Shown: piece by piece, positions 1 through 43,285 of the stretch | Numbering within the stretch: the stretch's first letter is position 1 | Layout: every line of letters starts with the position of its first letter | IMG/VR virus record: IMGVR_UViG_3300020371_000002 | DNA: 64,000 nucleotides | Reading direction: 5' to 3' (one strand) | Origin: a virus | Lineage: Duplodnaviria > Caudoviricetes | Translations under genes and position numbers: made by a program | Notes under the pieces: generated by a model | Told to the model about the DNA's origin: nothing | Seen by the model: only the letters and a program-made list of their open reading frames with translations | Databases searched by the model: none

Positions 1-1937
1 CCCTTCTTCGACTTCTTAATGGACAGGTAGTCTCTAGGAGGTTCGATTCCATTTGTTGCATTTGACACAACGGAACTGCTCTCCGAAGGCATTTGTGCGG
101 ACAGAGTGCTGTGCCTGATTCCGTGCTGTTTGATAGATTCCCTAAGAGACTCCCAATCACGCTCATATCCTGGGTTTGAAATTTCATCTACATCCTTCTT
201 ATATGTATCGATCGGCAAAATCCCATCAGAATATTTTGTTGACATAAACTCAGCACATGGACCCTTCTCTTTTGCAAGTTGATTAGAAGATTTCAACAAG
301 AAATATTGGAAAGATTCGGACAGTTTATGTACTGCGTCCCAGGCGTCCTGTGAGTCGTACTTCCACCCATGTTTAGCAAGATAATGTGCGAGACCGATGT
401 AACCCACTCCAAGGGATCTACGACCCAATGTGGCGAGTTCTGCGGCTGCAACTGGATAGTGTTGATAATCAATCAACTCCTCCAATGCACGGACGGATAG
501 ATCACATAAATTTTCCAGTTCATCGAGATCTCTGATCTTACCAACATTGATGGCAGACAGAATGCACAAAGCAATCTCACCAGACACATCATCAATATGT
601 TGAAGTGGGTCTGTAGGCAGGGTGATCTCTTGACACAAGTTACTCATATTCACCTTGTCCTTGAAGGACGAGTGAGTATTACAATGGTCGATGTTCATCA
701 GATACAAACGGCCAGTCTCTGCACGTTCCTTCAGAATGTCCAGAATGAGTTTTTGAGCTGGGATAGTTTTTCTCGGAATAGATCCATCAGATTCATAACG
801 TGTATAGAGATCATCAAATCCATCAGTACCAAAAGCATCATAAAGGCCTGGAACATCGTGAGGCGAGAAGAGGGAGATGTCTCCGTTCTGGATGAATCTT
901 TCGTAGAAGAGTTTTGAGATTTGGATGGAGTAGTCGAGTTTTCTGACACGGTTGTCCTCTGTACCTTTATTGTTCTTCAGGACGATGATGTCTTCGATTT
1001 CTTGGTGCCAGATTGGGAAGTGGACAGTCGCTGAGCCACCTCGAATTCCATTCTGTGTACAGCATCTGACAGTCGATTCAAACTTTTTAAGGAAAGGTAC
1101 AACACCTGTGTGTTGAACTTCGCCGCCTCGGATCTTACTGTTGATGCCACGGATTCTGCCTGCGTTGATACCGATTCCCGCCCTTTGTGCAACGTATTTG
1201 CCAATTGCCATATCAGAGCTAAAGATAGAATCGAGGGTGTCATCAACATCAACAAGAACACAGCTAGCAAACTGTCGAAGTGGAGTTCGCACTCCTCCCA
1301 TGATAGGTGTGGGAATGTTGATTTTGTGTTTGGAGATTGCGTCGTAGTATCGTTTGACATAATCGAGTCGATTTTCTGGAGGATACTCAGCAAAGATCGT
1401 CATGGCAATCAAGATGTACATGAATTGTGGTACTTCAAAGACCTTACCACTACTACGATCTTGTACGAGATATTTGTCTACGACCTGTCGAAGAGCTGCA
1501 TAAGTGAATAGAAAGTCACGATCATGGTCGATAAAACTATTTACCTTTTCGATCTCTTCATCTGTATATTTGTTAAGAATATCTTTGTCATAGATACCTC
1601 TCTCAACACCCGAATTAATTTGATCACGGAGATGAGGCATGTCCCTCAATCTTCCATAAAGTCCCTTCCTCAAAGAAAACAGAAGTAGCCTAGAGGCAAC
1701 AAACTGATAGTTGGGATGGTCAAGATCAATTAGATCACTCGCAGATCTGATGAGGATTTCCTGAATTTGTGCGGTAGTGATTCCGTCGAAAAACTGAATA
1801 CCCGAATTGATTTCAACCTGACTGGCAGATACTTGTGCAAGCCCCTCGCAGGCCTGTTCTACCATTTTATGCATCTTCTCTAGATCAATAGACTCGATTG
1901 ATCCATTTCTTTTCACTACTTTGATGCCGTTACTCAT
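1..1937 (-). CDS. nrdA: ribonucleotide reductase class Ia alpha subunit (3' end beyond window edge)
   Basis: Hand-translated, not in ORF track: MSNGIKVVKRNGSIESIDLEKMHK (ATP cone), PTPIMGGVRTPLRQFASCVL, catalytic SNLCQEITLP, SAQMPSESSSVVSNATNGIEPP. ATG overlaps the primase TGA (ATGA); no internal stop seen. Confidence 0.96.
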   Translation of the reverse strand, partial: MSNGIKVVKRNGSIESIDLEKMHKMVEQACEGLAQVSASQVEINSGIQFFDGITTAQIQEILIRSASDLIDLDHPNYQFVASRLLLFSLRKGLYGRLRDMPHLRDQINSGVERGIYDKDILNKYTDEEIEKVNSFIDHDRDFLFTYAALRQVVDKYLVQDRSSGKVFEVPQFMYILIAMTIFAEYPPENRLDYVKRYYDAISKHKINIPTPIMGGVRTPLRQFASCVLVDVDDTLDSIFSSDMAIGKYVAQRAGIGINAGRIRGINSKIRGGEVQHTGVVPFLKKFESTVRCCTQNGIRGGSATVHFPIWHQEIEDIIVLKNNKGTEDNRVRKLDYSIQISKLFYERFIQNGDISLFSPHDVPGLYDAFGTDGFDDLYTRYESDGSIPRKTIPAQKLILDILKERAETGRLYLMNIDHCNTHSSFKDKVNMSNLCQEITLPTDPLQHIDDVSGEIALCILSAINVGKIRDLDELENLCDLSVRALEELIDYQHYPVAAAELATLGRRSLGVGYIGLAHYLAKHGWKYDSQDAWDAVHKLSESFQYFLLKSSNQLAKEKGPCAEFMSTKYSDGILPIDTYKKDVDEISNPGYERDWESLRESIKQHGIRHSTLSAQMPSESSSVVSNATNGIEPPRDYLSIKKSKK

Positions 1938-2932
1938 GTTCGTTTCCAAGTTTGTAATTTAAGTTTTGCTTCTAATCCTTGATAGATGTTTGATTCTACC
2001 ACTTCCTGAACGTTAAGTCCAGATAAAAACATATCGTTGAGATCTTTCTCTTGTATCTCCTTAGGGAAGATGACTACCTTATGACCGAGCTGGGCGGTTC
2101 TCTCAATCTTCTTAACAATTTCTCTGTTTCGTGGTTCGTTGTCGAAGACGAATACGAACTGATGATCCAGAGTGCGGAGGTCAACATCGCTACCACACAT
2201 AGCAATAGCGTTTCTAAGGAAATGACTGTCGAATGGTCCTTCGGTGACATAGATTTGTTCATTGGTTTTAACAGAATCGAGGCCATATACTTTAAGAGCA
2301 TCGTCTTGAAGCATAATGGTTATGTACTTTATCTTAGATTTTGGTACAAGTGAACGTCCCTGATATCCAATGATTACTCCGTCACGTCGGAGAGGAATGA
2401 TGATGCGTGGCTCATCTTTTGTAACATCATCGAAGGTCTCCTTGTGTTTGTTTGTCCACTCTTTAAAGTTCTCGACGTAGTACAAATCTTCCAGTGCCTG
2501 ACTGGGAAGTCGTCTACCCTGTTCTAAGTAAATTCGAGCTGGATGTTCTTTATTTAGGTCAGAGATTTTTGGCAAACCACTCAAAATATCCTTCTTTTTG
2601 AAGACTGGTTTGGGGATAGAAATCTTGGGTTTAGGTGTGTTTGAGGCACGTCCTGTAGTACCCCTTTTATACCTCTCCATGACGTACTGATCATGCAAGA
2701 TAGTATCCTGATCCTTTAGAAAGTTTGTGAAGGTTCTGGTGACGCCACAGTTATGACATTTGAAATTATAATCATTTTTAATGATATACAAATATCCCCT
2801 AGCTTTATTCTTATGTTTCTGGGAATCACCACAATAAGGACAACGGAAGTTATACAACCCCCGTTTCTTTCTGGCAAATTTCTGTAAGCGTGACGATACT
2901 AATCCGATGTACTTGTCGTCAACGTGTACCAT
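1934..2932 (-). CDS. gp61: DNA primase (T4 gp61-like)
   Basis: Zn ribbon YNFRCPYCGDS...FKCHNCG; TOPRIM motifs YVTEGPFDS and FVFDNEPRN; KDLNDM. Confidence 0.96.
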   Translation of the reverse strand: MVHVDDKYIGLVSSRLQKFARKKRGLYNFRCPYCGDSQKHKNKARGYLYIIKNDYNFKCHNCGVTRTFTNFLKDQDTILHDQYVMERYKRGTTGRASNTPKPKISIPKPVFKKKDILSGLPKISDLNKEHPARIYLEQGRRLPSQALEDLYYVENFKEWTNKHKETFDDVTKDEPRIIIPLRRDGVIIGYQGRSLVPKSKIKYITIMLQDDALKVYGLDSVKTNEQIYVTEGPFDSHFLRNAIAMCGSDVDLRTLDHQFVFVFDNEPRNREIVKKIERTAQLGHKVVIFPKEIQEKDLNDMFLSGLNVQEVVESNIYQGLEAKLKLQTWKRT

Positions 2933-3888: not shown

Positions 3889-4380
3889 TCAGCTATCTGC
3901 TAAGATAGAATCGTCGGATGCGTCTCCGCTGATAGTAGAACCTGCAACAAATACTTCAGTTTTAGTTCTGGTGTTTCCATGTTGATCGGTATATGTTTTA
4001 ATACCAACCCAACCAGCGTGTGCAACTTCGTAGATACCACCGCGTGCTGCACCAACCTCAGCTGGATCTGCACCGAAAACTTCATTACCTGCGAATGCTG
4101 CATCCTTCACAAGGTACTTAGGCGACTCACTAATGTTGAAAGACTGGGTTAAACCAGATCCAGCAGTAAGACCTGCTGCACTATCCAGAGTGAGTTGTGT
4201 ATCCGAATCAACCGACTTGATAACTCCAGAACCATATGCACCCATGGTGATCACCTGACCTGCAGCAACAAGCCCCGATGCGGAGAAAGTTGTTCCAGAT
4301 CCAGTAACTACTCCACCAGCAGTAATGGTTGTAACGTTACCAGTCGCGTATACTGTATCTTTATTTCCCCAAAGAGACAT
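3889..4380 (-). CDS. putative virion structural protein (G/A/T/S-rich, beta-type)
   Basis: MSLWGNKD...HAGWVGIKTYTDQHGN; perfect late promoter TATAAATA 35 nt upstream. Confidence 0.7.
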   Translation of the reverse strand: MSLWGNKDTVYATGNVTTITAGGVVTGSGTTFSASGLVAAGQVITMGAYGSGVIKSVDSDTQLTLDSAAGLTAGSGLTQSFNISESPKYLVKDAAFAGNEVFGADPAEVGAARGGIYEVAHAGWVGIKTYTDQHGNTRTKTEVFVAGSTISGDASDDSILADS

Positions 4381-4414
4381 GGGCTTGACTCCAATATTAA
4401 TTATGATCTAGATT

Positions 4415-4422
4415 TATTTATA
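4415..4422 (-). promoter_or_regulatory. T4-type late promoter TATAAATA
   Basis: Forward tatttata = TATAAATA on the minus strand, upstream of ORF 3889..4380. Confidence 0.85.
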
Positions 4423-4448
4423 AAAAAAGAGACCCCGTATGGGGTCTC
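4422..4448 (-). terminator. rho-independent terminator
   Basis: GAGACCCC-ATAC-GGGGTCTC followed by a T7 tract on the minus strand. Confidence 0.85.
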
Positions 4449-4469
4449 AATGAAAATTTTATTCTCTTA

Positions 4470-4673
4470 TCAAGCCTCTTCTCTAGTCTTAATTGCGGCC
4501 GTAACTGTTTCTAACAGTTTATCATCCATGTCGGTCTTAGTCAGCTTGACTGCCTTTCCAAGAATGACTAGGCAAATTTCGATTAGTTTTTCTCCAAGTT
4601 CCTCGTTTTCGGGAATCTTTGCAACAGCATCAGTAATAATTTTTGATGCGAGTGGTAGTAAGAATGATAGCAT
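4470..4673 (-). CDS. small hypothetical helical protein
   Basis: 67 aa, MLSFLLPLASKII...TDMDDKLLE; TAAATA at 4699-4704 upstream. Confidence 0.75.
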   Translation of the reverse strand: MLSFLLPLASKIITDAVAKIPENEELGEKLIEICLVILGKAVKLTKTDMDDKLLETVTAAIKTREEA

Positions 4674-4707
4674 AATAATATCAAACAGGGTACGCCCCTA
4701 TTTAGTA

Positions 4708-4932
4708 TCAACCTGCCTCAAGAGGAGATGTTCCTGTTGCGGAAGGAATATAATATCCACCATTCATAGAACTTGGTTCTGGATCCACTGGGTGCTCTAC
4801 ACTAGAAGGTGCAGTATCTTCTTTTAATTCTTCTTCAATCACTGCCTCATAATTTGTAGTGTCTTCCTCAACAATGGGTGACCCTACAACTTCTTCCTTC
4901 TTTCCTCCTAGGAGGTCTCCAAATCTAGTCAT
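4708..4932 (-). CDS. small acidic hypothetical protein
   Basis: 74 aa, Glu/Pro-rich; TAAATA at 4956-4961 upstream. Confidence 0.65.
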   Translation of the reverse strand: MTRFGDLLGGKKEEVVGSPIVEEDTTNYEAVIEEELKEDTAPSSVEHPVDPEPSSMNGGYYIPSATGTSPLEAG

Positions 4933-4958
4933 GGGTTTTCTCTATAATACTAGTTTAT

Positions 4959-5213
4959 TTATCTACCTGCATCAGCATTCACTTGAGTGCCTTTCATGGT
5001 AGCAGCTCCTCTAAGTCCTTGACCTGCGTCTAAGTGAATTACGATACCACTTCCTGCAGGGATGTTGATGGAACCCAAGTCAGCATCATCAGCTGCATTT
5101 CGAAGAGTTACATCGCCAGCACTAGAGTCAGTATTAGATACCCAGACTGCTGTTGTTGTTTTGAATTTAGTTGTTCCTGTTGCCAGAGCAGTGACAGTTC
5201 CGAGAATTTTCAT
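4959..5213 (-). CDS. small hypothetical protein, possibly structural
   Basis: 84 aa, small-residue beta-strand pattern; TAAATA at 5235-5240 upstream. Confidence 0.7.
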   Translation of the reverse strand: MKILGTVTALATGTTKFKTTTAVWVSNTDSSAGDVTLRNAADDADLGSINIPAGSGIVIHLDAGQGLRGAATMKGTQVNADAGR

Positions 5214-5237
5214 CGTAACACTAACCTTTTCAATTAT

Positions 5238-5498
5238 TTAGTCAAAATCTTTCTCTTCTTCTGGCATGAGAGTAGTCATAACACCCATTCTTTTCGCCCA
5301 AGTATCCCCAGTTTCGTCTCCTCTAATGGGATTGATACACTGGTCGTCTCCTAATTTATTACATACTAGACCAGCAAGGTCGGCTTCGTTTCCAGTCCTC
5401 CCTGTGTTCCACATGTGTTGTCCATTAATCCATGTGGCGCCACATTTTGGGCATTCCTTCCTCTCTAAAGAGAGGTCGGACAGCTCTTTCTCAGACAT
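5238..5498 (-). CDS. conserved cyanophage-type hypothetical protein with CxxC
   Basis: MSEKELSDLSLERKECPKCGATWING...LAGLVCN; start reassigned to ATG 5498. Confidence 0.7.
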   Translation of the reverse strand: MSEKELSDLSLERKECPKCGATWINGQHMWNTGRTGNEADLAGLVCNKLGDDQCINPIRGDETGDTWAKRMGVMTTLMPEEEKDFD

Positions 5499-5691
5499 TA
5501 AAATCTCTCCAATCTTTTGGTGGTTTACCAAGTTGTTTTTCTAACCGCTTACGCATGTAATACATTCTAACTTTCACATATGCATACTTAACTTGCAAAT
5601 CTGCGTATGATACTAGTCTCATTGTTTCTTCGATGCCAGCGTATGCTACCAACAGTAGAAACAATGCTACTAAAAAGTAGAAAAGAGTCAT
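5491..5691 (-). CDS. small membrane protein
   Basis: N-terminal hydrophobic helix MTLFYFLVALFLLLVAYAG; TAAATA at 5725-5730 upstream. Confidence 0.7.
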   Translation of the reverse strand: MTLFYFLVALFLLLVAYAGIEETMRLVSYADLQVKYAYVKVRMYYMRKRLEKQLGKPPKDWRDFNV

Positions 5692-5800
5692 AAGCTTAGT
5701 ATCAACTCGATACCATTCTACTACTATTTAGAAAAAATAGTGTAAAATTATGTAAAGATATCTCTATAGTTCTGTAAATGTGGTATAATCCCACACTTTA

Positions 5801-8191
5801 TTAACAATTCCAGGCCCTGAGAGACTTATTGATGCGGGAATCAGGATCGTTGGCAGTCTTTTTAGATGTCAACTTCTTCTTCATTCCACTCATTCTCGCA
5901 CAAAAACTCTTTCTACGAGGGTTCCCAACTTTCTTTGAAGGTCTCTTAAGATCGCTTCCTGGATTTTCTCTTTCGTAGCTCTTGCGTCCTTTTTCATTTA
6001 ATCCACCTTCAGGGTTTTTGCCAGACTTTTTTTGCCAATCTTCCTTTACATCAGCAGCAGCCTTACCAGAGTAAGACTTCTTGGCATTCCTCTTAACAGT
6101 ATCACTAATTTCTTTTCTACGCAAGGCATCAACAATCTTTCTTCTCTTACTATTCAAGAGAGGAGGATTTGTCTTGTCAATTGCTCTGATAGCAGCTCTG
6201 ACAATTCTTCCCTCATGTACTGTCTCCTCACGCACAGGCTTACAGTTAGGAACCATACGGTTGCCTTTCTTCTTCATACCATATGCTCTGTAACCCTTCC
6301 AACACTTCTCCATAAGTCTTTCGAAGGTATAGTTTTCAAACTCTTCCTTCTTAGTCTTATTACCCCAGTTGGCAGCACCCTTCTTACGACACTGAACAAG
6401 GCGACCAGATGCATATGCAGAAGGCCATACCTTAGCAGTTGCTTTTACTTTCTTATAACAAGCATCCTTTTCACCTGCAGCCTCTTTCATCGCACGTTTT
6501 GCTTTTGCTTTTGCAAGCAATCTTTCTCTGGCTGCATCTCGTTCGTTCTTAGGAATAGAAGTTACAGCACCTAATTTTTCGGCAGGTTTGCCTGGAACGT
6601 GTGATTCTTTCATGGTTTCCTCAGTCTTAACGTTGATTGCCTTTCCTTTTCTATCTGGATTGGGATCTTTTCTATTCTTTCTACGGAACGCAGCCTCTTC
6701 CTCATCTTTACTGAGGTTTCTCTTCATCTTAGAAGATCCACACTTGGGTTTTGTGGTTTGTCCTGGCTGTTTGGCGCAGGGCTTTCCTGAGTATTTACCG
6801 CCCAGTTGAACCCAACCAGGGGTGCCATCAGAAGAGCGACTCTTGCCAAACCAGTCACGCAAAGAATTATCACCACTCTTGTTCCCCTCCGAGACCGACC
6901 CACCGCCGTTCCCGTTTCCACCTTCGCCGTTTCCGTTTCCGTTTCCGTTACCTTCTTTCGGTTTAGAATCATCATCTTCATCTTTTTCAATGTATCCACC
7001 ACGGCCTACATGCCACCCACGGGGAATAGTCTTACACTTTTTATCAGTATAACACCAATATTTACCATCTGGACATTTCTTAGCCTCATCTTCAATAATC
7101 TCATGTGCAGTAAAGTCAACAACATGAGCCATGACATTACCATGCATGTCCTCTACGGTACTAAAACCTTCACCATAAAGAGCAGGACCTTTAGTCTTTG
7201 ACTTTGCAGCCCTTCTCTCCCCCTCTGTCGATCCTTGTTGAGAGAGGGTTCTAATCTTTTTTGCTCTTTGTGCCTGTCTATGTTTCTGGGGATCAATCTC
7301 AAATGATTCCTTAGATACTTTCTTCTCAGGGAGACCTTTATGCTTTGTTGATGCAAAGTCCTTTACATCTTTTTTCTTCATAGATGCAGCAACCTGTGCA
7401 ACCTCAGGAGATGCAGCACCTTCACCCTTCTGAGCAGCACGAACCATACCCATGAAACGTTGTTGTTTCCTAGATACAGCCTCTTCTTTAATATCTGGAT
7501 TAACCGTGATGGTATTTTTACCACTCATCGGTTTAATAATTTTTTGACCCTCAGTCTCTTTCTTTTTATCTACTTCCCATAGATACTCCTCTTTCCAAGG
7601 ATCCTGTGGCTTGTTAGACTTCCAAGGATCTGTAACTTTCTTTGCAGGTTTTGCAGAAGGTTTAGATACACCTGTCTTAAGTCCTCTATTCTTAGACTTA
7701 GAGAACATTCTCTGACCAATAGCCTTTGCTTTAGTCTTAAGTTTCTGATCAACACCAGTTGCAGCAACTGCGGCTTTACCAAGTCCACTTGCAGCGTTAC
7801 CAAGATTGGAGGCAAGAGCACCATATCCACCAGCATCACCAGTGAATGTGGATCCACTCTGGACCTTAGGACCAGAAGTAGCCTGTTTTAGACCCGCTTT
7901 TACACGGTCCATTCTCTCCTGACCAGCAGTTTTTTGTTTGGTCAACTGTTGAGCTCTCTTTCTAAGAGCCTTTGCTCTCTGCATCCTGTTTTGTTTTGCA
8001 GCAAGAGAATCGGCTCTTTGACCCTTCTCCATTGCAGTCTTCGCCTTATCTACAAACTTGTCTGCTCTCTTAGCAGCTGCAGCGGCAGGCGAAGTCTTAG
8101 ATACGGGAACCTTAGAAAGGGCATCTTTGCGAGCCTGTTTCTTAGGATCTCGGATAGAACCGATCAGATCGTCAAGACTTGGTTTTGCCAT
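5801..8191 (-). CDS. 796-aa Lys/Arg-rich modular protein, candidate internal-head polyprotein
   Basis: Long ORF of short basic modules separated by hydrophobic-x-Glu motifs; C-terminal WQKKSGKNPEGGLNEKGR...RINKSLRAWNC module recalled from other phages. Confidence 0.85.
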   Translation of the reverse strand: MAKPSLDDLIGSIRDPKKQARKDALSKVPVSKTSPAAAAAKRADKFVDKAKTAMEKGQRADSLAAKQNRMQRAKALRKRAQQLTKQKTAGQERMDRVKAGLKQATSGPKVQSGSTFTGDAGGYGALASNLGNAASGLGKAAVAATGVDQKLKTKAKAIGQRMFSKSKNRGLKTGVSKPSAKPAKKVTDPWKSNKPQDPWKEEYLWEVDKKKETEGQKIIKPMSGKNTITVNPDIKEEAVSRKQQRFMGMVRAAQKGEGAASPEVAQVAASMKKKDVKDFASTKHKGLPEKKVSKESFEIDPQKHRQAQRAKKIRTLSQQGSTEGERRAAKSKTKGPALYGEGFSTVEDMHGNVMAHVVDFTAHEIIEDEAKKCPDGKYWCYTDKKCKTIPRGWHVGRGGYIEKDEDDDSKPKEGNGNGNGNGEGGNGNGGGSVSEGNKSGDNSLRDWFGKSRSSDGTPGWVQLGGKYSGKPCAKQPGQTTKPKCGSSKMKRNLSKDEEEAAFRRKNRKDPNPDRKGKAINVKTEETMKESHVPGKPAEKLGAVTSIPKNERDAARERLLAKAKAKRAMKEAAGEKDACYKKVKATAKVWPSAYASGRLVQCRKKGAANWGNKTKKEEFENYTFERLMEKCWKGYRAYGMKKKGNRMVPNCKPVREETVHEGRIVRAAIRAIDKTNPPLLNSKRRKIVDALRRKEISDTVKRNAKKSYSGKAAADVKEDWQKKSGKNPEGGLNEKGRKSYERENPGSDLKRPSKKVGNPRRKSFCARMSGMKKKLTSKKTANDPDSRINKSLRAWNC
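6903..6952 (-). repeat. GN-coding hexamer microsatellite inside the 796-aa ORF
   Basis: Forward (ccgttt)n-like array encoding GNGNGNGNGEGGNGNGGG. Confidence 0.8.
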
Positions 8192-8194
8192 TTA

Positions 8195-8914
8195 TCAATA
8201 TCCCGAAGTATTTACCCTATCGTTATTGTCATTACCACTGTCACTGTTACCACTACCAGTGATTCTGTTTGCAATAGCATCAGAAGCAACTTGTTTTGCC
8301 ATTGGTTTTACTTTGGTAAGTGCTTTCTTTGCAAGTACCTTGGCACCACCCTTTGCAGCAATCTTAGCACCAGCCTTTGCAGCAAGACCCTTAGCAAGTG
8401 GGGCAAGTGCTGCAAGTGCAGGAAGTGCTTCTTGCATTAGTTCTTCTTTTGCAAGATGAGGGGCAGCTTTGTACAGTGGTTTACCCGTAATCTTGTTCTT
8501 CATACCAGCCTTGTAGTTCTGATATGCTTTTGTATTTCCTTTCTTATCCGCAGCAGTAACTGTGTATGCTTCTTCTACTTCCTCATTTTTGAATGAACCC
8601 TCTAGGCACTGACAAGGATCGCATCCACAAATAGGACAGTTTACAGACTCCTCAATTTCTGTTCTCTTTGCATTACAGATTACTGTTGCTTCTGCCTCAG
8701 TGAAGTCAGCAGCAATAAGTCTTTCGTATAAAGAACCAAGGTACTCAATGTGTGCTTCCGAGACCTTTCTCTTCTTCATTGCCGCCTTGATGGCTTTATC
8801 TCTGGAACCCATATACTCATCAGTTCCACTCTCTACCTTTCCGTCTCCATCATAATCCTTGTCGGCTTTTTTAGCCCCTTCATAAACCTTTTGATAAAGT
8901 TCCGATAAATCCAT
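8195..8914 (-). CDS. 239-aa modular hypothetical protein, candidate internal-head polyprotein
   Basis: Modules DYDGDGKVE, CPICGCDPCQC and an Ala/Lys amphipathic tract separated by x-x-E sites; TAAATA at 8940-8945 upstream. Confidence 0.8.
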   Translation of the reverse strand: MDLSELYQKVYEGAKKADKDYDGDGKVESGTDEYMGSRDKAIKAAMKKRKVSEAHIEYLGSLYERLIAADFTEAEATVICNAKRTEIEESVNCPICGCDPCQCLEGSFKNEEVEEAYTVTAADKKGNTKAYQNYKAGMKNKITGKPLYKAAPHLAKEELMQEALPALAALAPLAKGLAAKAGAKIAAKGGAKVLAKKALTKVKPMAKQVASDAIANRITGSGNSDSGNDNNDRVNTSGY

Positions 8915-8938
8915 TTTACTAACTAGACAGTGCTAGAC

Positions 8939-10222
8939 TTATTTATGTTTCTTTGGATCGTTAGGCTTCAAAGGTAGGATTGTTGGTTTAATTCTTTTCT
9001 TTGGTTCTCCAAATTTTCTTACAGGTTGTCCAGCAGACATAGCTTGAGCATACTCTCTATAATCATCTGTCCCAACCTCATATGCCTCTGTAAGATCTCT
9101 CAACCATGACTTAAACATAGTCCCCTCGGGGGTCATACAGATAACATAATTAGTTCCACGTCTAGTGATTCTACCGACTTCTCCAGTATTCTGATTCTCT
9201 ACTAATGCACCTACTTTAAATACCGTGCCATTCATGTAGAATTCTCTTAAACCATCAGGATCAAGTTTAGGGGCATACTCCCATACAGACTCCTTAACAT
9301 CAGAAGTCGAGTCAATACCCATAGACTTACGGAGATTATTGAAGAGTTCTTTCTTCTCCATGTTTCCGATGTTCGGAATACCTTTTACAAATCCCTTAAA
9401 GTCTCCATCTGCAGCTGCCTTTCTCATCTTAGATGCAGACATACCCTCAAGTCCCTCAGCATCTGCGTCTCTAGCACCTGCAGAAACAACCTCAATCTCT
9501 TCAAATTCGTAGAGATCACCATTATACTTATGTGCAAGACTCTGGAATTCGCTGAGTCTATCTTGTCCCACCATGATATTGAGTTTGGTGAATCCCAATT
9601 CATTCGCAGCAACCATAACATCAAAGATGGTCTTTGCATTTGGATCATCCACAATGTCCTCTGCAACATCATCGAACATCTTTCTCATGTATTCGATCTT
9701 TGTTCCAGGTTCCAGTGGATTCTTTTTCTTATCTTGTGTTCTACTTGGATATATCTTTAGTGCAAAGTTCTTTCTAGATGCTTCTGACTTTGCTCTCTGT
9801 AATAGTTTTTGATGTCCTGTTGTTGGGGGATTGAATCTACCGAATACTACAACAACCCCATCGTACTGACTAGGATCAGTATCAGGTACTTCTACATCAC
9901 TCTGCGACGTATCACCCTTCTTGGATACATCCTCTTCGCCCGATGACTTTGCAGCAGGAGTCGCATCAGGAGCAGGTTGAGCTGCTGCCTTCTTAGCAGT
10001 AGGTTCCGCAGGTTTTTGTGACTTTCCCTGACTTGGGGCATCATCGACTTTAGAGTTTTTCCCACCAGAAAACTTGAGTTTTCCATCAACGGTCTTCGCA
10101 ACAAACTTGCCCTGGCGGTCGTACCAACCACCATGACCGTCACCTACCAGTCCTCGTTGTTGTGCTTGAGTAGCAGCAGAGGTCTTGGCAGCCTCGCTAA
10201 GAAACTGTACAAAACTTTTCAT
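8939..10222 (-). CDS. HIGH-superfamily nucleotidyltransferase (phage cytidyltransferase-like) with internal-protein-like N-terminus
   Basis: VVVVFGRFNPPTTGHQKLL (HxGH variant), MVGQDR, MSASKMR; N-terminus MKSFVQFLSE; TAAATA at 10253-10258. Confidence 0.85.
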   Translation of the reverse strand: MKSFVQFLSEAAKTSAATQAQQRGLVGDGHGGWYDRQGKFVAKTVDGKLKFSGGKNSKVDDAPSQGKSQKPAEPTAKKAAAQPAPDATPAAKSSGEEDVSKKGDTSQSDVEVPDTDPSQYDGVVVVFGRFNPPTTGHQKLLQRAKSEASRKNFALKIYPSRTQDKKKNPLEPGTKIEYMRKMFDDVAEDIVDDPNAKTIFDVMVAANELGFTKLNIMVGQDRLSEFQSLAHKYNGDLYEFEEIEVVSAGARDADAEGLEGMSASKMRKAAADGDFKGFVKGIPNIGNMEKKELFNNLRKSMGIDSTSDVKESVWEYAPKLDPDGLREFYMNGTVFKVGALVENQNTGEVGRITRRGTNYVICMTPEGTMFKSWLRDLTEAYEVGTDDYREYAQAMSAGQPVRKFGEPKKRIKPTILPLKPNDPKKHK

Positions 10223-10255
10223 TGTCGGGTTACGAAGTCCTGACCATAATTTTAT

Positions 10256-11344
10256 TTATGCTTTTGTTTTAGGAAGGTATGCGGCATCACCTGCTTCAAC
10301 ATAGAATTTGAGTTCCTTGATAGCAAAATCACCATTTACTGTTCCAGACCTATTTTTAAACCTCAATTGGAATAATGTTTTATTTTGAGGCATAACTTTG
10401 AATAACAAATTATTTCCAGATTCATTTTCATTAACCAAAAATGATTGAGTCTCCTGTTCCAGTTGATTAATGTGTTCAACTGTCATCTCTTTGATCTTTG
10501 TCTTATCAATATCTACAACATCTGCAAGATCCTCACCAAAAGCAACGTCCCTAAAAAGTTGAAAAGCTTGTCCCTTGAATGTGGGTTGTCCCTGTCTAGC
10601 TTTTAGTTTAGTTAATACTTCCTTATAGAGTTTCTTAATCAAATCAACTTTCATCTTTTTCTCTGCAGGAGTTTTTGCTTTTGCAAGAGTTCCACCAAGA
10701 GTTGCTGCATACATCTCACGATCATCTACCTTAGCACCAAACCTCTGAAGAATGTCCATCATCCCATTATAAGGACTCAAGTTAGCAAGTGTTTTACTAC
10801 CAGACTTGAGAGAGAAGTTCAAAGCTCTATCAAGAACAATGTCATCATTCATTCTAACTTCTACTTCCAAGTCACCCTTCACCAATCCTCCAGAAGACTC
10901 ACCAGCAATACCATCAGCAATGATTTTAACTACAACATTATCTGATTGATTATTCTTCAGATATTGATTTTTGGTCATCTGAATCAATCTTCTGTAGTTG
11001 GTCTGAGTATACTTGATTAAATTATCAATCTTCTCACTGATCTTTCCTACATCCTGACTGTTCTTATACAGGGGTTCGTAGTTTTCCCCAAATGCCATGT
11101 TGGTAGAAGAATGTTTTAGTCTCATCTCCAACTCAACTTGGATATCATCTACTGGATTACCCGCCTTAAATTTCTTTACTACTGTCCTAAATCTTCCCTT
11201 GTGGAATAAATCTGGATCAACTTTCCTACGAAGGGTATTGACGTTAGTTTTATTAATGGTTTCGGTAGGCGATGCAAACATCTCTGCCAAGGCAATGGCA
11301 AAGATTCCTTCCATTACATCTCCTTCATTTAACTTACCAGCCAT
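10256..11344 (-). CDS. hypothetical protein, putative PD-(D/E)xK nuclease fold
   Basis: NEGDVMEG helix, KGDLEVEV and NFSLKSG motifs; the ORF is certain, the fold is inferred. Confidence 0.6.
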   Translation of the reverse strand: MAGKLNEGDVMEGIFAIALAEMFASPTETINKTNVNTLRRKVDPDLFHKGRFRTVVKKFKAGNPVDDIQVELEMRLKHSSTNMAFGENYEPLYKNSQDVGKISEKIDNLIKYTQTNYRRLIQMTKNQYLKNNQSDNVVVKIIADGIAGESSGGLVKGDLEVEVRMNDDIVLDRALNFSLKSGSKTLANLSPYNGMMDILQRFGAKVDDREMYAATLGGTLAKAKTPAEKKMKVDLIKKLYKEVLTKLKARQGQPTFKGQAFQLFRDVAFGEDLADVVDIDKTKIKEMTVEHINQLEQETQSFLVNENESGNNLLFKVMPQNKTLFQLRFKNRSGTVNGDFAIKELKFYVEAGDAAYLPKTKA

Positions 11345-11371
11345 AAAAAACCCCCTTACGGGGGCTATTTA
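11345..11371 (-). promoter_or_regulatory. late promoter TAAATA followed by a GNRA hairpin and U tract directly before an ATG
   Basis: Minus strand: gaTAAATAg-CCCCC-GTAA-GGGGG-TTTTTT-ATG. Confidence 0.75.
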
Positions 11372-11595
11372 TCTTCCTCTTCTTCGTCTTTGTTTTTGTT
11401 GAATCCGAAGGGAGCAGTCTGTTCTTCGGCTTCGGCGCGGAGTTTATGTGCAAGTGTACATACAGACTCCATGACTTTCAAACTATCTTCAACTGTGCAG
11501 TTTTCTGGCATACTGCGATGAACAATATCAAACAGTGGGAAGAACTTATCTGCAGCTTCTTTTACTTCCTCTGGTGTTAGTGGTTTACTGTGCAT
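11365..11595 (-). CDS. conserved cyanophage-type hypothetical protein
   Basis: 76 aa, LTPEEVKEAADKFFPLFDIV...APFGFNK; overlaps neighbouring genes. Confidence 0.75.
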   Translation of the reverse strand: MHSKPLTPEEVKEAADKFFPLFDIVHRSMPENCTVEDSLKVMESVCTLAHKLRAEAEEQTAPFGFNKNKDEEEEDK

Positions 11596-39635: not shown

Positions 39636-41027
39636 TCACATGAGGTTTTGAACCTTGACTCTTCTGTAGTAACGGTTGGTGTTTGCACGAAGGCGACCAA
39701 GACCTTGATCGGTTCCTTCTGCGAATGGGTTCGCTACGATACCGTAACGAGTCTTGAAGCCAATCTTTGGCTGGAAGGTGTCCTGACCAACGGCGCGAAC
39801 CATCTGGAGAGGAACGTAAGGGCAGTAGAACAGACCTGCGTCGTAAGGAGAAGAACCTTTGTAACCGACAACGTAGTATTGATCTGCAGCGTTGTTTGCA
39901 GCAAATGGGTCAATGTAGACCTTGAACTTACCAGCAAGTGTACCAGCGAAGGTGTTGCCAGTGTCATCAACGTTGAGGTTAGCGTTGAGTGCAGGAGTGT
40001 AGTCGAGGAGACCAGCCATTGTGAGTGCGGAAGCAACGTCTGCGGAACACAGAATTGTGTTGCCCTTCCCTCTACGAGTTCTTTGTGCAATCTGGTTCGC
40101 ATCTCTTTCGATCTGGAACAGAAGACCCTTGAACTTCTCAACAGACCAACGACCGTTGGAGTCAACGTCGAGGTCGAATGCACCTGCGGTAGCAGTGTTG
40201 AGTGTTGCACCCTGCTCAGCAATCTTGTAGATAGTTCTGATAACTTCGCGGTTGATCTCAGCAAGAATCTCAGTAGAGAGAATGTTTGCGAGTTCCGCTT
40301 CAGCGTTCAGACCGTGGATTGCCTTCAGGTCTTGTGCAAGCTCAAGGCTGTACTCAGCTTTCAGCGCTCTGGACTTTGCAGTCACAGTGACTTTCTCGAT
40401 CGAGAATGCCATTTCCTGGAAGTGGTTGTTAGCACCATCTCCAAGTGCCTCAGCCTCTCCAGTTGCCATACCCTGACCTACGTTGTAGGCAGAAGTTGTT
40501 GCGGATCCAACTGGGTTAAGAACTGCAGGGTTGGAACCAGACTGAGAGTCTGTACCGAAACCAGCAGCTACGTCGGTCATACCAGCAGTCAGGGACTGAT
40601 CGTCGTCCTGACCAGAGAATGCAGTATCAGGCTCATTGAACAGTGCCTCAGTACCACTCTGGTTGGTGTAGCGAGAACGCATCGCGAAGATGAGTCCAGT
40701 AGGTCCAGACATTGGCTGAACACCTGCGAGGTCATAAGCGACCAGGTTAGGCATTGCACGTCTGATCAGGGAGATCAGAACTGGGTCGAAACCAGCAACA
40801 GGACCACCTGCTGCAGAACCACCAGAGAAACCACCAGTACCAGCGGAGTTGGTTGGGGATGCTTCACCGAGGAACTCAGCGTTCTCGCGGAGCATTTGCT
40901 CTTGGTTCTCAAGCAGAGCAGCAGTTACGTTGCGTCTGTGGGAGTCTTGAATTTTGTCGATACCATCTGCATCGAGCAGTGGAGCCCACTTTTCAGTGAG
41001 TTGGTTATAATTGATTTGTTGTTGCAT
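39636..41027 (-). CDS. gp23: major capsid protein (T4 gp23-like)
   Basis: FDPVLISLIRR, VQPMSGPTGLIFAMR, SRALKAEYSLELAQDLKAIHG, FYCPYVPL. Confidence 0.98.
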   Translation of the reverse strand: MQQQINYNQLTEKWAPLLDADGIDKIQDSHRRNVTAALLENQEQMLRENAEFLGEASPTNSAGTGGFSGGSAAGGPVAGFDPVLISLIRRAMPNLVAYDLAGVQPMSGPTGLIFAMRSRYTNQSGTEALFNEPDTAFSGQDDDQSLTAGMTDVAAGFGTDSQSGSNPAVLNPVGSATTSAYNVGQGMATGEAEALGDGANNHFQEMAFSIEKVTVTAKSRALKAEYSLELAQDLKAIHGLNAEAELANILSTEILAEINREVIRTIYKIAEQGATLNTATAGAFDLDVDSNGRWSVEKFKGLLFQIERDANQIAQRTRRGKGNTILCSADVASALTMAGLLDYTPALNANLNVDDTGNTFAGTLAGKFKVYIDPFAANNAADQYYVVGYKGSSPYDAGLFYCPYVPLQMVRAVGQDTFQPKIGFKTRYGIVANPFAEGTDQGLGRLRANTNRYYRRVKVQNLM

Positions 41028-42220: not shown

Positions 42221-42952
42221 TCAGAGATTTGACAGGAAGGACTGGAACAACTCCAGTTTCTTCTCATCAAGTCTTCCTTGATCCACTAAGTTATTTATAG
42301 TTTGCTTAGTTTCTTCGATCTTTTCCTCTACTTTAGCTTCAACTACAGCAGGGGTTTCGATCACTGCAACTGGTTCAACAGGTGCAGATTCGGTGAATGT
42401 GTTGCGTGCTTTGAGGATTCCAGCATCCCAAATCCACTCTACACCTTCCATGATTCCGTTTACGAAAGCATCTGGGGCAGAGGGATCTGCAACAATGTCA
42501 GCAGCAGTTGCTAACATGAAGTCCTCTCCAACAACTTTATAGCCTTCCTGTGTGTCACGAAGACTACCCATACCTCTTGAAGAAACTCCAAGAGTTACAC
42601 CTTCGTCCAATAAGGACTTTGCAATAACACCCATAGGAGTGTCGAGCAGTTTTGCTTTACCTACAAAATTAGAACCCTCTCTTACAAGAGATGTAATCTT
42701 GTGGGAAACTCTATCTAGATTAACAGTAGGTCCCTCAGGGTGACCAAGTTCACCAAGAGCGCGTCCCTTAGAAATGAAAGACTCGGTATATCTGTTTACT
42801 TCTTTTTCAAGAATTTCAACAGGATACATACGATTATTTCTATTCTTCAGGTTTCCTTGCAGGAAGACACCCTCAATAAACATAGATTTCTTGCCGTCTT
42901 TTTCTTCGACAAGAATCTTACACTGTTCGATTTCTTCTGTGATGAGTTTCAT
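42221..42952 (-). CDS. gp21: prohead protease (T4 gp21-like)
   Basis: ALGELGHP, VSHKITSL, GVSSRGMGSL, DIVADPSAPDA. Confidence 0.96.
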   Translation of the reverse strand: MKLITEEIEQCKILVEEKDGKKSMFIEGVFLQGNLKNRNNRMYPVEILEKEVNRYTESFISKGRALGELGHPEGPTVNLDRVSHKITSLVREGSNFVGKAKLLDTPMGVIAKSLLDEGVTLGVSSRGMGSLRDTQEGYKVVGEDFMLATAADIVADPSAPDAFVNGIMEGVEWIWDAGILKARNTFTESAPVEPVAVIETPAVVEAKVEEKIEETKQTINNLVDQGRLDEKKLELFQSFLSNL

Positions 42953-42964
42953 TTTAAGTAAAGC

Positions 42965-43285
42965 TTAGTTTTCTTCTTCATCATCTGGAGTCTCTACTTC
43001 CGCAGTAGGACTTTCAATCTCTTCTTCCTCAGAAGAATCTGTTTCTACTTCATCAGTAGGTTGTTGATCTGCATCTACCTCAGCTTCTGCTTCGGGAGAT
43101 ACTTCGTCTGTTTCAGTAGGAGGTTCATCCAGATAAGGATTTGGTCCACCAAACATGGACGCAGTAACCGCAGGGGTAACAACATCAACATTGTCAGAAG
43201 CCTTCTTAGTCAAAAGGTCTTTGATCTTAGAATGAATATCTGTAGGAGACTCATTCCCAGCGACCATATTAATTAAATCATCCAT
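42965..43285 (-). CDS. acidic prohead core protein (gp67-like position)
   Basis: Very acidic C-terminal half; lies between portal and protease; TAAATA at 43308-43313. Confidence 0.7.
   Translation of the reverse strand: MDDLINMVAGNESPTDIHSKIKDLLTKKASDNVDVVTPAVTASMFGGPNPYLDEPPTETDEVSPEAEAEVDADQQPTDEVETDSSEEEEIESPTAEVETPDDEEEN

Follow-up and report, generated by a model that had tools for sequence, protein, structure and literature searches.

What does a T4-like marine cyanophage do with a strongly basic protein of 796 amino acids (aa) that looks like a chain of small and unrelated modules, and does this chain stay in one piece? The question is raised by an open reading frame (ORF) on the minus strand of IMG/VR record IMGVR_UViG_3300020371_000002, at 5801..8191 of the window, i.e. 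the whole 64,000-nt stretch of DNA analysed here, which is part of a Kyanoviridae-type genome of a T4-like marine cyanophage. Marine T4-like cyanophages are among the most abundant viruses of the ocean and a major ecological force. Most of the ‘structural proteins’ in cyanophage virions are without an assigned role, and, to our knowledge, an equivalent of the internal proteins of T4 has yet to be defined for marine T4-like cyanophages. An earlier sequence-only reading of this DNA had proposed that the protein is packaged in the prohead and cut into many small basic peptides. Here, we find that its modules are discrete units which are shuffled among a very large family and joined at a short hydrophobic-x-Glu motif, and comparison of the relatives makes it probable that the protein is a late-made polyprotein, packaged in the prohead and cut by the prohead protease gp21 at the junctions. 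We favour this reading because the modules are shuffled, the motif is specific to the junctions, some relatives carry leaders that resemble the capsid-targeting sequence (CTS) of T4, one member of the family is found in virions and the phage has a gp21 gene of its own.

The ORF itself was confirmed at the position given in the earlier reading and is judged to be a real gene. It consists of 796 codons plus a stop, starts with ATG and is separated by a gap of only 3 nt from the stop codon of the upstream gene. Near-identical copies of the protein are encoded on environmental contigs of 226–232 kb, and 26 near-identical full-length environmental variants were collected. With 130 Lys, 55 Arg and 93 acidic residues (Asp plus Glu), the net charge of the protein is +92.

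Discrete modules in variable order

We divided the protein into an N-terminal region and nine modules, denoted M1–M9 (Table 1), and mapped the modules onto 270 relatives by jackhmmer. The commonest order, found in 88 proteins, was M3-M4-M6-M7-M9. Dozens of other orders were also seen, among them M4-M7-M6-M9 and M7-M4-M6-M9, M1 at several positions and duplicated M7; in some relatives an internal copy of M9 is followed by M3 or M4, and proteins of 1200–1386 aa repeat much of the module set. Because so many orders, permutations and duplications occur across relatives, the modules are genuine units which undergo recombination, and the shuffling between phages that the sequence-only reading had suggested looking for, by searching each module separately, was indeed observed. 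In the relatives P0029-P0036 (1019–1386 aa), much of the set of modules is repeated within one protein, and the query aligns twice with overlapping regions.

The family to which these modules belong is large. An exhaustive HMMER search gave 8334 representatives of 50%-identity clusters at E <= 0.001, and a word-based search of relatives gave >7000 matches. In the HMMER results, a given stretch of the query is found at differing positions in proteins of 140–979 aa, and among the PHROGs separate segments of the protein hit 14 families whose lengths differ widely. In isolates, the multi-module core was found in cyanomyoviruses. Matches in the isolate database to the M4–M7 stretch are cyanophage or marine-virus records except for two Roseobacter phage records, and of these two the one listed matches part of M6 only. 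The tblastn match in cyanophage S-SM1 falls inside SSM1_115, a gene annotated as T4-GC119, which places the protein in the family of that name. In Sullivan et al. 2010, T4-GC119 genes have lengths of 276–2985 nt in 16 phages (PMC3037559), a range that fits a modular family. Look-alikes found with a protein language model were viral hypothetical clusters only and offered no function.

Separate Pfam scans of the modules gave DUF3008 and DUF6321, along with a weak match to DUF5872 and a ‘cobra toxin’ match below threshold, and nothing else. DUF6321 (PF19846) matches M9 well above its gathering score and over the whole profile (residues 724-794, profile 1-72 of 72, 80 bits vs 28.5, E 2.1e-22). For DUF3008 (PF11450) the match is above cut-off with M1 alone (query 230-300, match 238-291; 26.8 bits vs 24; profile 1-57 of 57), and the score drops to 19.6 bits, below cut-off, when the whole protein is scanned. 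M6 (578-615) did not reach the gathering score of DUF5872 (PF19197; 19.8 bits vs 27.5, profile 6-46 of 116), and from this partial match it is possible that M6 is a distant relative of the N-terminal half of that family. The three-Cys module was also considered as a member of the ‘cobra toxin’ family and this assignment was rejected, the score of 17.3 bits lying under the cut-off of 25.3. In most family members, a DUF192 domain (PF02643, ∼110 aa) sits between M4 and M6, flanked by ...NVKTEE and ...IDxEE↓G junctions (here and below, the arrow marks the putative cut).

All 11 Cys residues to which the earlier reading had drawn attention are found in the sequence. They are distributed as one pair or triple per module (373/380/386, 472/484, 578/601, 630/650 and 764/796), and every one of them is conserved in at least 90% of the proteins in a 75-sequence alignment. 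Between M3 and M4, the Gly/Asn linker is encoded by a hexanucleotide tandem repeat at 6906-6949; Gly/Asn-repeat linkers stand at the same place in relatives, where their composition and length vary.

The predicted structure points to beads on a string rather than to an integrated fold. The full-length AlphaFold (AF2) model has a mean predicted local distance difference test (pLDDT) score of 49 and a predicted template modelling (pTM) score of 0.21; it shows islands of order in helices 35-105, in the three-Cys module, in the hairpin of M7 and in M9, and the candidate Glu sites lie almost all in segments with pLDDT <50. One integrated fold with a fixed module order in all homologues, which would speak against the proposal of the sequence-only reading, was seen neither in this model nor among the relatives. 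M9 is predicted to be an autonomous small helical domain, as its model made alone with its own alignment has a pLDDT of 84.5 and a pTM of 0.61. For this model, Foldseek gave no match in the PDB at E <= 0.001, the best hit of VIA-align among 48,161 chains, a generic helical one, had a Z of 4.5, and the AFDB clusters returned were unnamed proteins of 80–130 residues only, with 25–45% identity among the better-scoring matches.

M9 also exists as a separate gene of 83–84 aa in three complete podophage genomes. Its identity is 73–79% to the 83-aa proteins of the Pelagibacter podophages HTVC034P and HTVC115P, and 62% to the 84-aa protein of the T7-like cyanophage P-SCSP1q. The stand-alone proteins start with MAK(S/T)P(A/L)W or similar, e.g. 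MAKSPAW. In two of the three genomes, HTVC115P and P-SCSP1q, the gene lies beside capsid genes, and in HTVC034P its neighbours are small genes of early appearance, with a DnaA-like gene close by. Peptidase_S77, the family of gp21, was not found in these three complete genomes, whereas S-SM1, which has the multi-module form, has one. In this small sample, the distribution fits the idea that fusion with protease sites and separate genes may be two ways to the same small proteins. The cryo-EM paper on P-SCSP1u makes no mention of an M9 homologue. In HTVC034P (668..2573) and P-SCSP1q (1459..1877), the DUF6321 genes are flanked by tiny (45–82 aa) and extremely basic genes, one of which has a WSARKAQLLAKRYKAAGGGY stretch reminiscent of M6 and DUF5872.

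The hydrophobic-x-Glu motif at module junctions

The eleven Glu sites listed in the sequence-only reading are all present in the protein, and comparison of relatives added two further sites, LWE and IIE, that were absent from that list (Table 1). The implicit argument from the number of sites in one sequence did not hold: [LI]xE occurs 6 times in the 796-aa protein with 3.3 expected from shuffles (p ∼0.1), and hydrophobic-x(1-2)-E occurs 16 times with 13.5 expected (p 0.26). As the count in one sequence is at chance level, the claim was therefore judged on comparative evidence. A chance-level count, together with the predicted disorder of much of the protein, is also what a chance mosaic would give, i.e. 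unrelated small ORFs that have become fused, or low-complexity sequence, with Glu motifs that are merely incidental. Such a mosaic is effectively refuted by the thousands of homologues that keep the positions of Cys, Trp, Gly and Pro, by the near-identical full-length variants in the environment and by the detection of a family member in virion proteomics.

For the comparative test, each module was anchored on an invariant motif, the residues upstream of the anchor were read and unique contexts were counted. Hydrophobic-x(1-2)-E was found within 9 residues before the module anchor at 408 of 464 unique internal junctions (88%), compared with a background rate of ∼17%, and the contexts with the motif cover 36 ordered module pairs. 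The motif sits 1–4 residues ahead of the module start in internal copies. Position P3 of the junction Glu is occupied by Leu (22%), Ile (20%), Val (20%) or Met (6%), and it is hydrophobic at 72% of junction Glu compared with 25% of other Glu in the same proteins (Fisher 5e-71, a value that overstates independence, the sequences being related).

The same holds for the modules one by one. Internal copies of M1 have [IV]xE ahead of them in 12 of 12 unique contexts, those of M7 have hydrophobic-x-E in 93% of 146 unique contexts, and the motif is present before 80% of internal M4 copies, typically as [MV]SE, and before 95% of internal M9 copies, with one or two spacer residues. M8 is preceded by hydrophobic-x-E↓G. 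In relatives, M2 starts after KE↓S and ends in GPxL[YFMI]GE, and M4 ends in NVKTEE-T-hydrophobic-x-E. Where M9 is internal, a conserved spacer, xYEPxGxx[IL]xE, separates ...LRAWNC, its usual C-terminus, from the next module. A module that opens a protein has the same boundary with Met and 2–5 residues in front of it, as in MPAV-SKKQQR, MAS-KSGD, MA-SFDIN and MAKNGK-C, and the motif is missing in nearly all these cases; N-terminal copies of M1 begin with MP(A/S)(V/L)S.

Close relatives gave a further comparison. Environmental variants that are 98% identical (P0007) differ by a 4-residue indel at the M5/M6 junction (6482..6493, aa 567-570), where AANKSLGE replaces AMKE. Since A-M-K-E is changed to S-L-G-E, the motif survives the indel, and it then equals the L-G-E↓A of gp23. 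The same short motif is thus found at the boundaries of units that occur independently, and the comparison supports a Glu motif which is specific to junctions and is kept whatever modules flank it.

Protease, capsid targeting and gene setting

In T4, cleavage by gp21 takes place behind L/I-x-E; the protease takes off the CTS, which reads MKTYQEFIAE (PMC8442874), and divides core proteins into several fragments (PMC9026906). The window has its own gp21 gene, which encodes a Peptidase_S77 protein, and its gp23 contains the FLGE↓AS site that the sequence-only reading had pointed out (Table 1). Five relatives of the 796-aa protein (P0232, P0255, P0155, P0162 and P0170) have CTS-like leaders that end at the same module boundary. 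In one of them the leader is MKTFADFINE↓S-KSGD, with the start of M4 directly after it, and this relative is encoded directly after gp13-gp14-gp15-gp16 in a 70-kb T4-like contig. MKTFSQFLLE↓A and MKKFNQFLEE↓A were found in one relative each, and MRTFVDLYE↓A in two (P0162/P0170), as an N-terminal extension ahead of the region homologous to the N-terminus of the 796-aa protein. If the family is a cargo polyprotein cut by the protease, the CTS and gp21-processing logic of T4 would reach to cyanophages.

Proteomics of whole purified virions detected SSM1_115, the T4-GC119 member of S-SM1, with 13 peptide counts (PMC3037559, Table S8). The gene of SSM1_115 lies between g16 and g17 and adjoins the gene of another virion protein.

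Transcription of the gene was considered from its upstream sequence. The strict late promoter TATAAATA was not found near the 796-aa gene, where only the shorter TAAATA/ATAAATA form is present (Table 1). This form stands 23–40 nt upstream of the start in 9 of 10 genes checked in the island at 3889..11400 (minus strand), with ∼0.045 expected per gene. The 796-aa gene is the last of four (10256..11344, 8939..10222, 8195..8914 and 5801..8191) that have the motif 23–36 nt before each start, and 5 of 6 smaller downstream genes checked have it 27–40 nt before the start. The same motif is found upstream of gp22, gp67/68, gp20 and gp18. Judged by these upstream motifs, the island fits a late-transcribed block.

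Several observations, in addition to the chance-level count in the single sequence and the relatedness behind the Fisher value, weigh against cleavage by gp21 in the prohead. As for the sites, P3 at the junctions is also Val, Met, Phe or Tyr, which is wider than the strict L/I-x-E of T4, and some junctions have a non-hydrophobic P3, e.g. KE↓S before M2 and LHTE↓D before M9. Inside M9 there is a nearly invariant L-N-E (residues 731-733); therefore some motifs of this type are left uncut, or else M9 would be divided further. As for targeting, the N-terminus of the 796-aa protein starts with MAKPSLDDLIGS, has its first Glu at residue 55 and is without a CTS-like leader, as are the N-termini of most relatives. 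As for gene position, the gene is ∼30 kb from the head genes gp23, gp22, gp21 and gp20 of the same phage, which lie at 39.6–45 kb of the window; in S-SM1, S-RIM8 and S-E7 the family gene is located between g16 and g17, whereas in the studied phage it is outside that locus and has an N-terminal part of 371 additional residues. Finally, the homologue of Syn9 was not detected in virions (PMC3037559, Table S8), and published virion proteomics reports presence only, with no cleavage product for any member (PMC3037559).

Some of these points are compatible with a protein that stays intact. In this case, the beads on a string would form a virion protein or a DNA-binding protein, whose numerous small basic domains attach to DNA or to the inside of the capsid, and hydrophobic-x-Glu would be just a preferred composition of acidic linkers. 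The LNE within M9, the lack of a CTS and the S-SM1 peptide counts, which indicate presence, all agree with an intact protein, and linkers before M6 are generally acidic. However, acidity alone leaves unexplained why Leu, Ile and Val are preferred at exactly P3, and the near-absence of the motif in N-terminal module copies is not explained either. Moreover, the motif is kept across the indel, CTS-like leaders end at the same boundary, and modules exist as separate genes in protease-less podophages. We regard an intact protein as unlikely, though worth keeping in mind.

Another explanation is that the polyprotein is cut elsewhere or by another enzyme of the host or the phage, in the cytoplasm or after injection, and that the modules are cytoplasmic host-takeover factors. 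The island that holds the gene is remote from the structural genes, which would agree with this, as would the HTVC034P homologue among early-looking genes near a DnaA-like gene, and the missing CTS on the 796-aa protein. The motif, however, fits the gp21 rule and resembles L-G-E↓A, the site in gp23 of this phage, a family member is found in virions, and a late-promoter-like motif precedes the gene. Furthermore, the canonical locus in other cyanophages is between g16 and g17, and the stand-alone gene adjoins capsid genes in HTVC115P and P-SCSP1q. We consider cleavage of this kind improbable.

For a polyprotein cut by gp21, we infer the location in the head, the cleavage, and the fate (including ejection) and activity of the peptides as follows. 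The polyprotein would be incorporated into the prohead, where gp21 would cut after the Glu of hydrophobic-x-Glu at every module boundary. About a dozen pieces would be released, comprising a basic helical N-terminal fragment of ∼22 kDa (1-206), a 30-residue peptide, mini-proteins and spacers. The products would be basic pieces of 27–89 residues with an isoelectric point (pI) of 9.6–11, several of them of 3–10 kDa with one conserved Cys pair each; the M3 piece with its Gly/Asn linker would be near-neutral (pI 5.4), and a 26-residue acidic spacer and two pentapeptides would be set free as well. The basic products would remain together with the packaged DNA and probably be carried with it into the host.

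As to what the peptides might do, nucleic-acid binding or an early role after injection is our guess. Because positions are conserved across phages of different hosts, a conserved target may be expected, i.e. nucleic acid or a universal component of host or phage. Charge neutralisation or a fast-evolving, host-specific effector role is less likely. A bolder version of the gp21 reading, possible but doubtful as a whole, has two halves. In the first, the capsids of marine T4-like cyanophages would be loaded with varying combinations of basic mini-proteins braced by disulfides, which are injected with the DNA as first-strike nucleic-acid-binding or anti-defence factors. In the second, the units would circulate between myoviruses, where they are fused and provided with sites, and podoviruses, where they are separate genes, and the motif would serve as their universal connector, into which any module fits.

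Neighbouring genes of the island and of the head region were also inspected. The product of the cytidylyltransferase-like gene at 8939..10222 begins with MKSFVQFLSE↓A, which is close to the CTS of T4, and tblastn with its first 60 residues finds cytidyltransferase genes in many cyanophages. Its family, T4-GC190, is present in S-SM1 virions with 25 peptide counts (PMC3037559, Table S8). The 239-aa protein encoded directly upstream of the 796-aa gene (8195..8914, minus strand) starts with MDLSELYQKVYE↓G and has a Cys cluster of its own and an Ala/Lys-rich tail; it is possibly a further cargo protein encoded in the island. A protein of 106 aa and extremely acidic composition is encoded between the genes of gp20 and gp21 (42965..43285, minus strand), where T4 has gp67/gp68. 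It has no Pfam match, and it could be an acidic core partner for basic cargo.

Table 1. Features of the 796-aa protein, its gene and related loci in the window; arrows mark putative cuts
Feature	Residues	Nucleotides	Strand	Glu site at end (residues)	Basis or remark
Whole ORF, 796 aa		5801..8191	-		Member of T4-GC119 / PHROG 727; phrog_727 E 2.6e-145, residues 387-796
N-terminal Lys/Ala-rich helical region	1-206	7574..8191	-	Y-L-W-E↓V, conserved (LWE 204-206)	Lineage-specific; alignment; model helices 35-105, pLDDT 76-86
Short conserved peptide	207-236	7484..7573	-	D-I-K-E↓E (DIKE 233-236)	Alignment of relatives
M1, DUF3008	237-295	7307..7483	-	VSKE 292-295	Pfam on module alone
M2	296-341	7169..7306	-	GPALYGE↓G (LYGE 338-341)	Start after K-E↓S; mapping and alignment of relatives
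Acidic spacer	342-367	7091..7168	-	I-I-E↓D (IIE 365-367)	IIE↓G version of spacer precedes M3 in relatives
M3, three-Cys mini-domain (368-404) plus Gly/Asn repeat linker		6887..7090	-	V-S-E↓G (433-435)	
M4, Cys pair 472/484	436-529	6605..6886	-	NVKTEE-TMKE↓S (VKTEE 521-525, MKE 527-529)	Most conserved module, predicted disordered
M5, helical	530-570	6482..6604	-	A-M-K-E↓A (MKE 568-570)	DUF192 domain here in most relatives
M6, KDACY...WPSAYASG...C	571-628	6308..6481	-	R-L-M-E↓K (LME 626-628)	Weak DUF5872 match
M7, CWKGY...C beta-hairpin	629-660	6212..6307	-	VREE/TVHE↓G (VREE 653-656, VHE 658-660)	
M8, basic helical	661-717	6041..6211	-	D-V-K-E↓D (VKE 715-717)	
M9, DUF6321, Cys 764/796	718-796	5804..6040	-		Predicted autonomous small helical domain
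TAAATA late-promoter-like motif		8209..8214	-		Starts 23 nt upstream of ATG, inside 3′ end of upstream gene
Cytidylyltransferase-like gene (PF01467, PHROG 395)		8939..10222	-		Same late-promoter-like island
gp23, major capsid protein		39636..41027	-		Reference site L53-G54-E55↓A56
gp21, prohead protease		42221..42952	-		Peptidase_S77 E 2.7e-37; proposed processing enzyme, in trans

Relation to known systems

The sequence-only reading had stated that no such system was described. In the literature searched, there is indeed no account of this family as a polyprotein or a gp21 substrate; nothing was found on DUF6321 or DUF3008, nor on cyanophage polyproteins or prohead-protease substrates, and the text on the S-SCSM2R virion proteome does not name the T4-GC119 family. 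The family as such, however, is already on record as virion protein T4-GC119, and the general ideas, i.e. cutting of core proteins by gp21, CTS-borne cargo and polyvalent capsid proteins, were known before. T4-GC119, which is the same family by sequence, is treated as hypothetical or structural and is assigned to a mobile petE/PTOX/zwf/gnd cassette, with no modules, junction motif or processing reported (PMC3037559).

If the gp21 reading is true, it would explain a very large hypothetical family (>8000 representatives of 50%-identity clusters) in which three Pfam DUFs are involved. Hydrophobic-x-Glu at junctions would then be a simple rule to predict mature virion peptides, and the family would be a natural case of a single protease motif that enables the exchange of modular small proteins between phages.

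The arrays of tiny basic DUF6321/DUF5872 genes in marine podophages have the same modules, but as separate genes, with neither the junction motif nor S77. Polyvalent proteins combine many unrelated domains, 2–15 per polypeptide, and are predicted to be packaged in the capsid, delivered with the DNA and at times freed by proteolysis (PMC5512222). Their domains are enzymatic or anti-defence ones (MPTase, ART, ParB, nucleases), the proteins are often self-cleaving, and cyanophages are not mentioned (PMC5512222), whereas the 796-aa protein has basic mini-proteins of 25–90 residues, a fixed junction motif and a protease that would act in trans; by Pfam, none of the polyvalent-type domains is present in it and only DUFs match. 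The giant phages phiKZ and SPN3US have a diverged homologue of gp21 that processes a large number of their head and ejection proteins behind the Glu of a short motif, which adds up to thousands of cleavages in each capsid (PMC9026906). These systems differ in having another motif and large unrelated proteins, from which propeptides are removed, rather than a chain of mini-proteins.

The internal proteins IPI-III and Alt of T4 are basic, late-made and head-internal, have a CTS of ∼10 residues and are cut by gp21 after L/I-x-E (PMC9026906; PMC8442874). Like this T4 cargo, some relatives of the 796-aa protein carry CTS-like leaders, although the 796-aa protein itself does not. Unlike it, the protein shows no sequence similarity to the internal proteins, and these are cut once, compared with the ∼12 cuts into unrelated basic Cys-pair mini-proteins that are proposed here. 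For cutting at several places, T4 offers a likeness in gp22, gp67 and gp68, each of which is cut by gp21 into several fragments (PMC9026906). The T4 proteins cut in this way belong to the scaffold and are acidic, and most of their fragments leave the head, whereas the products proposed for the cyanophage polyprotein would be basic.

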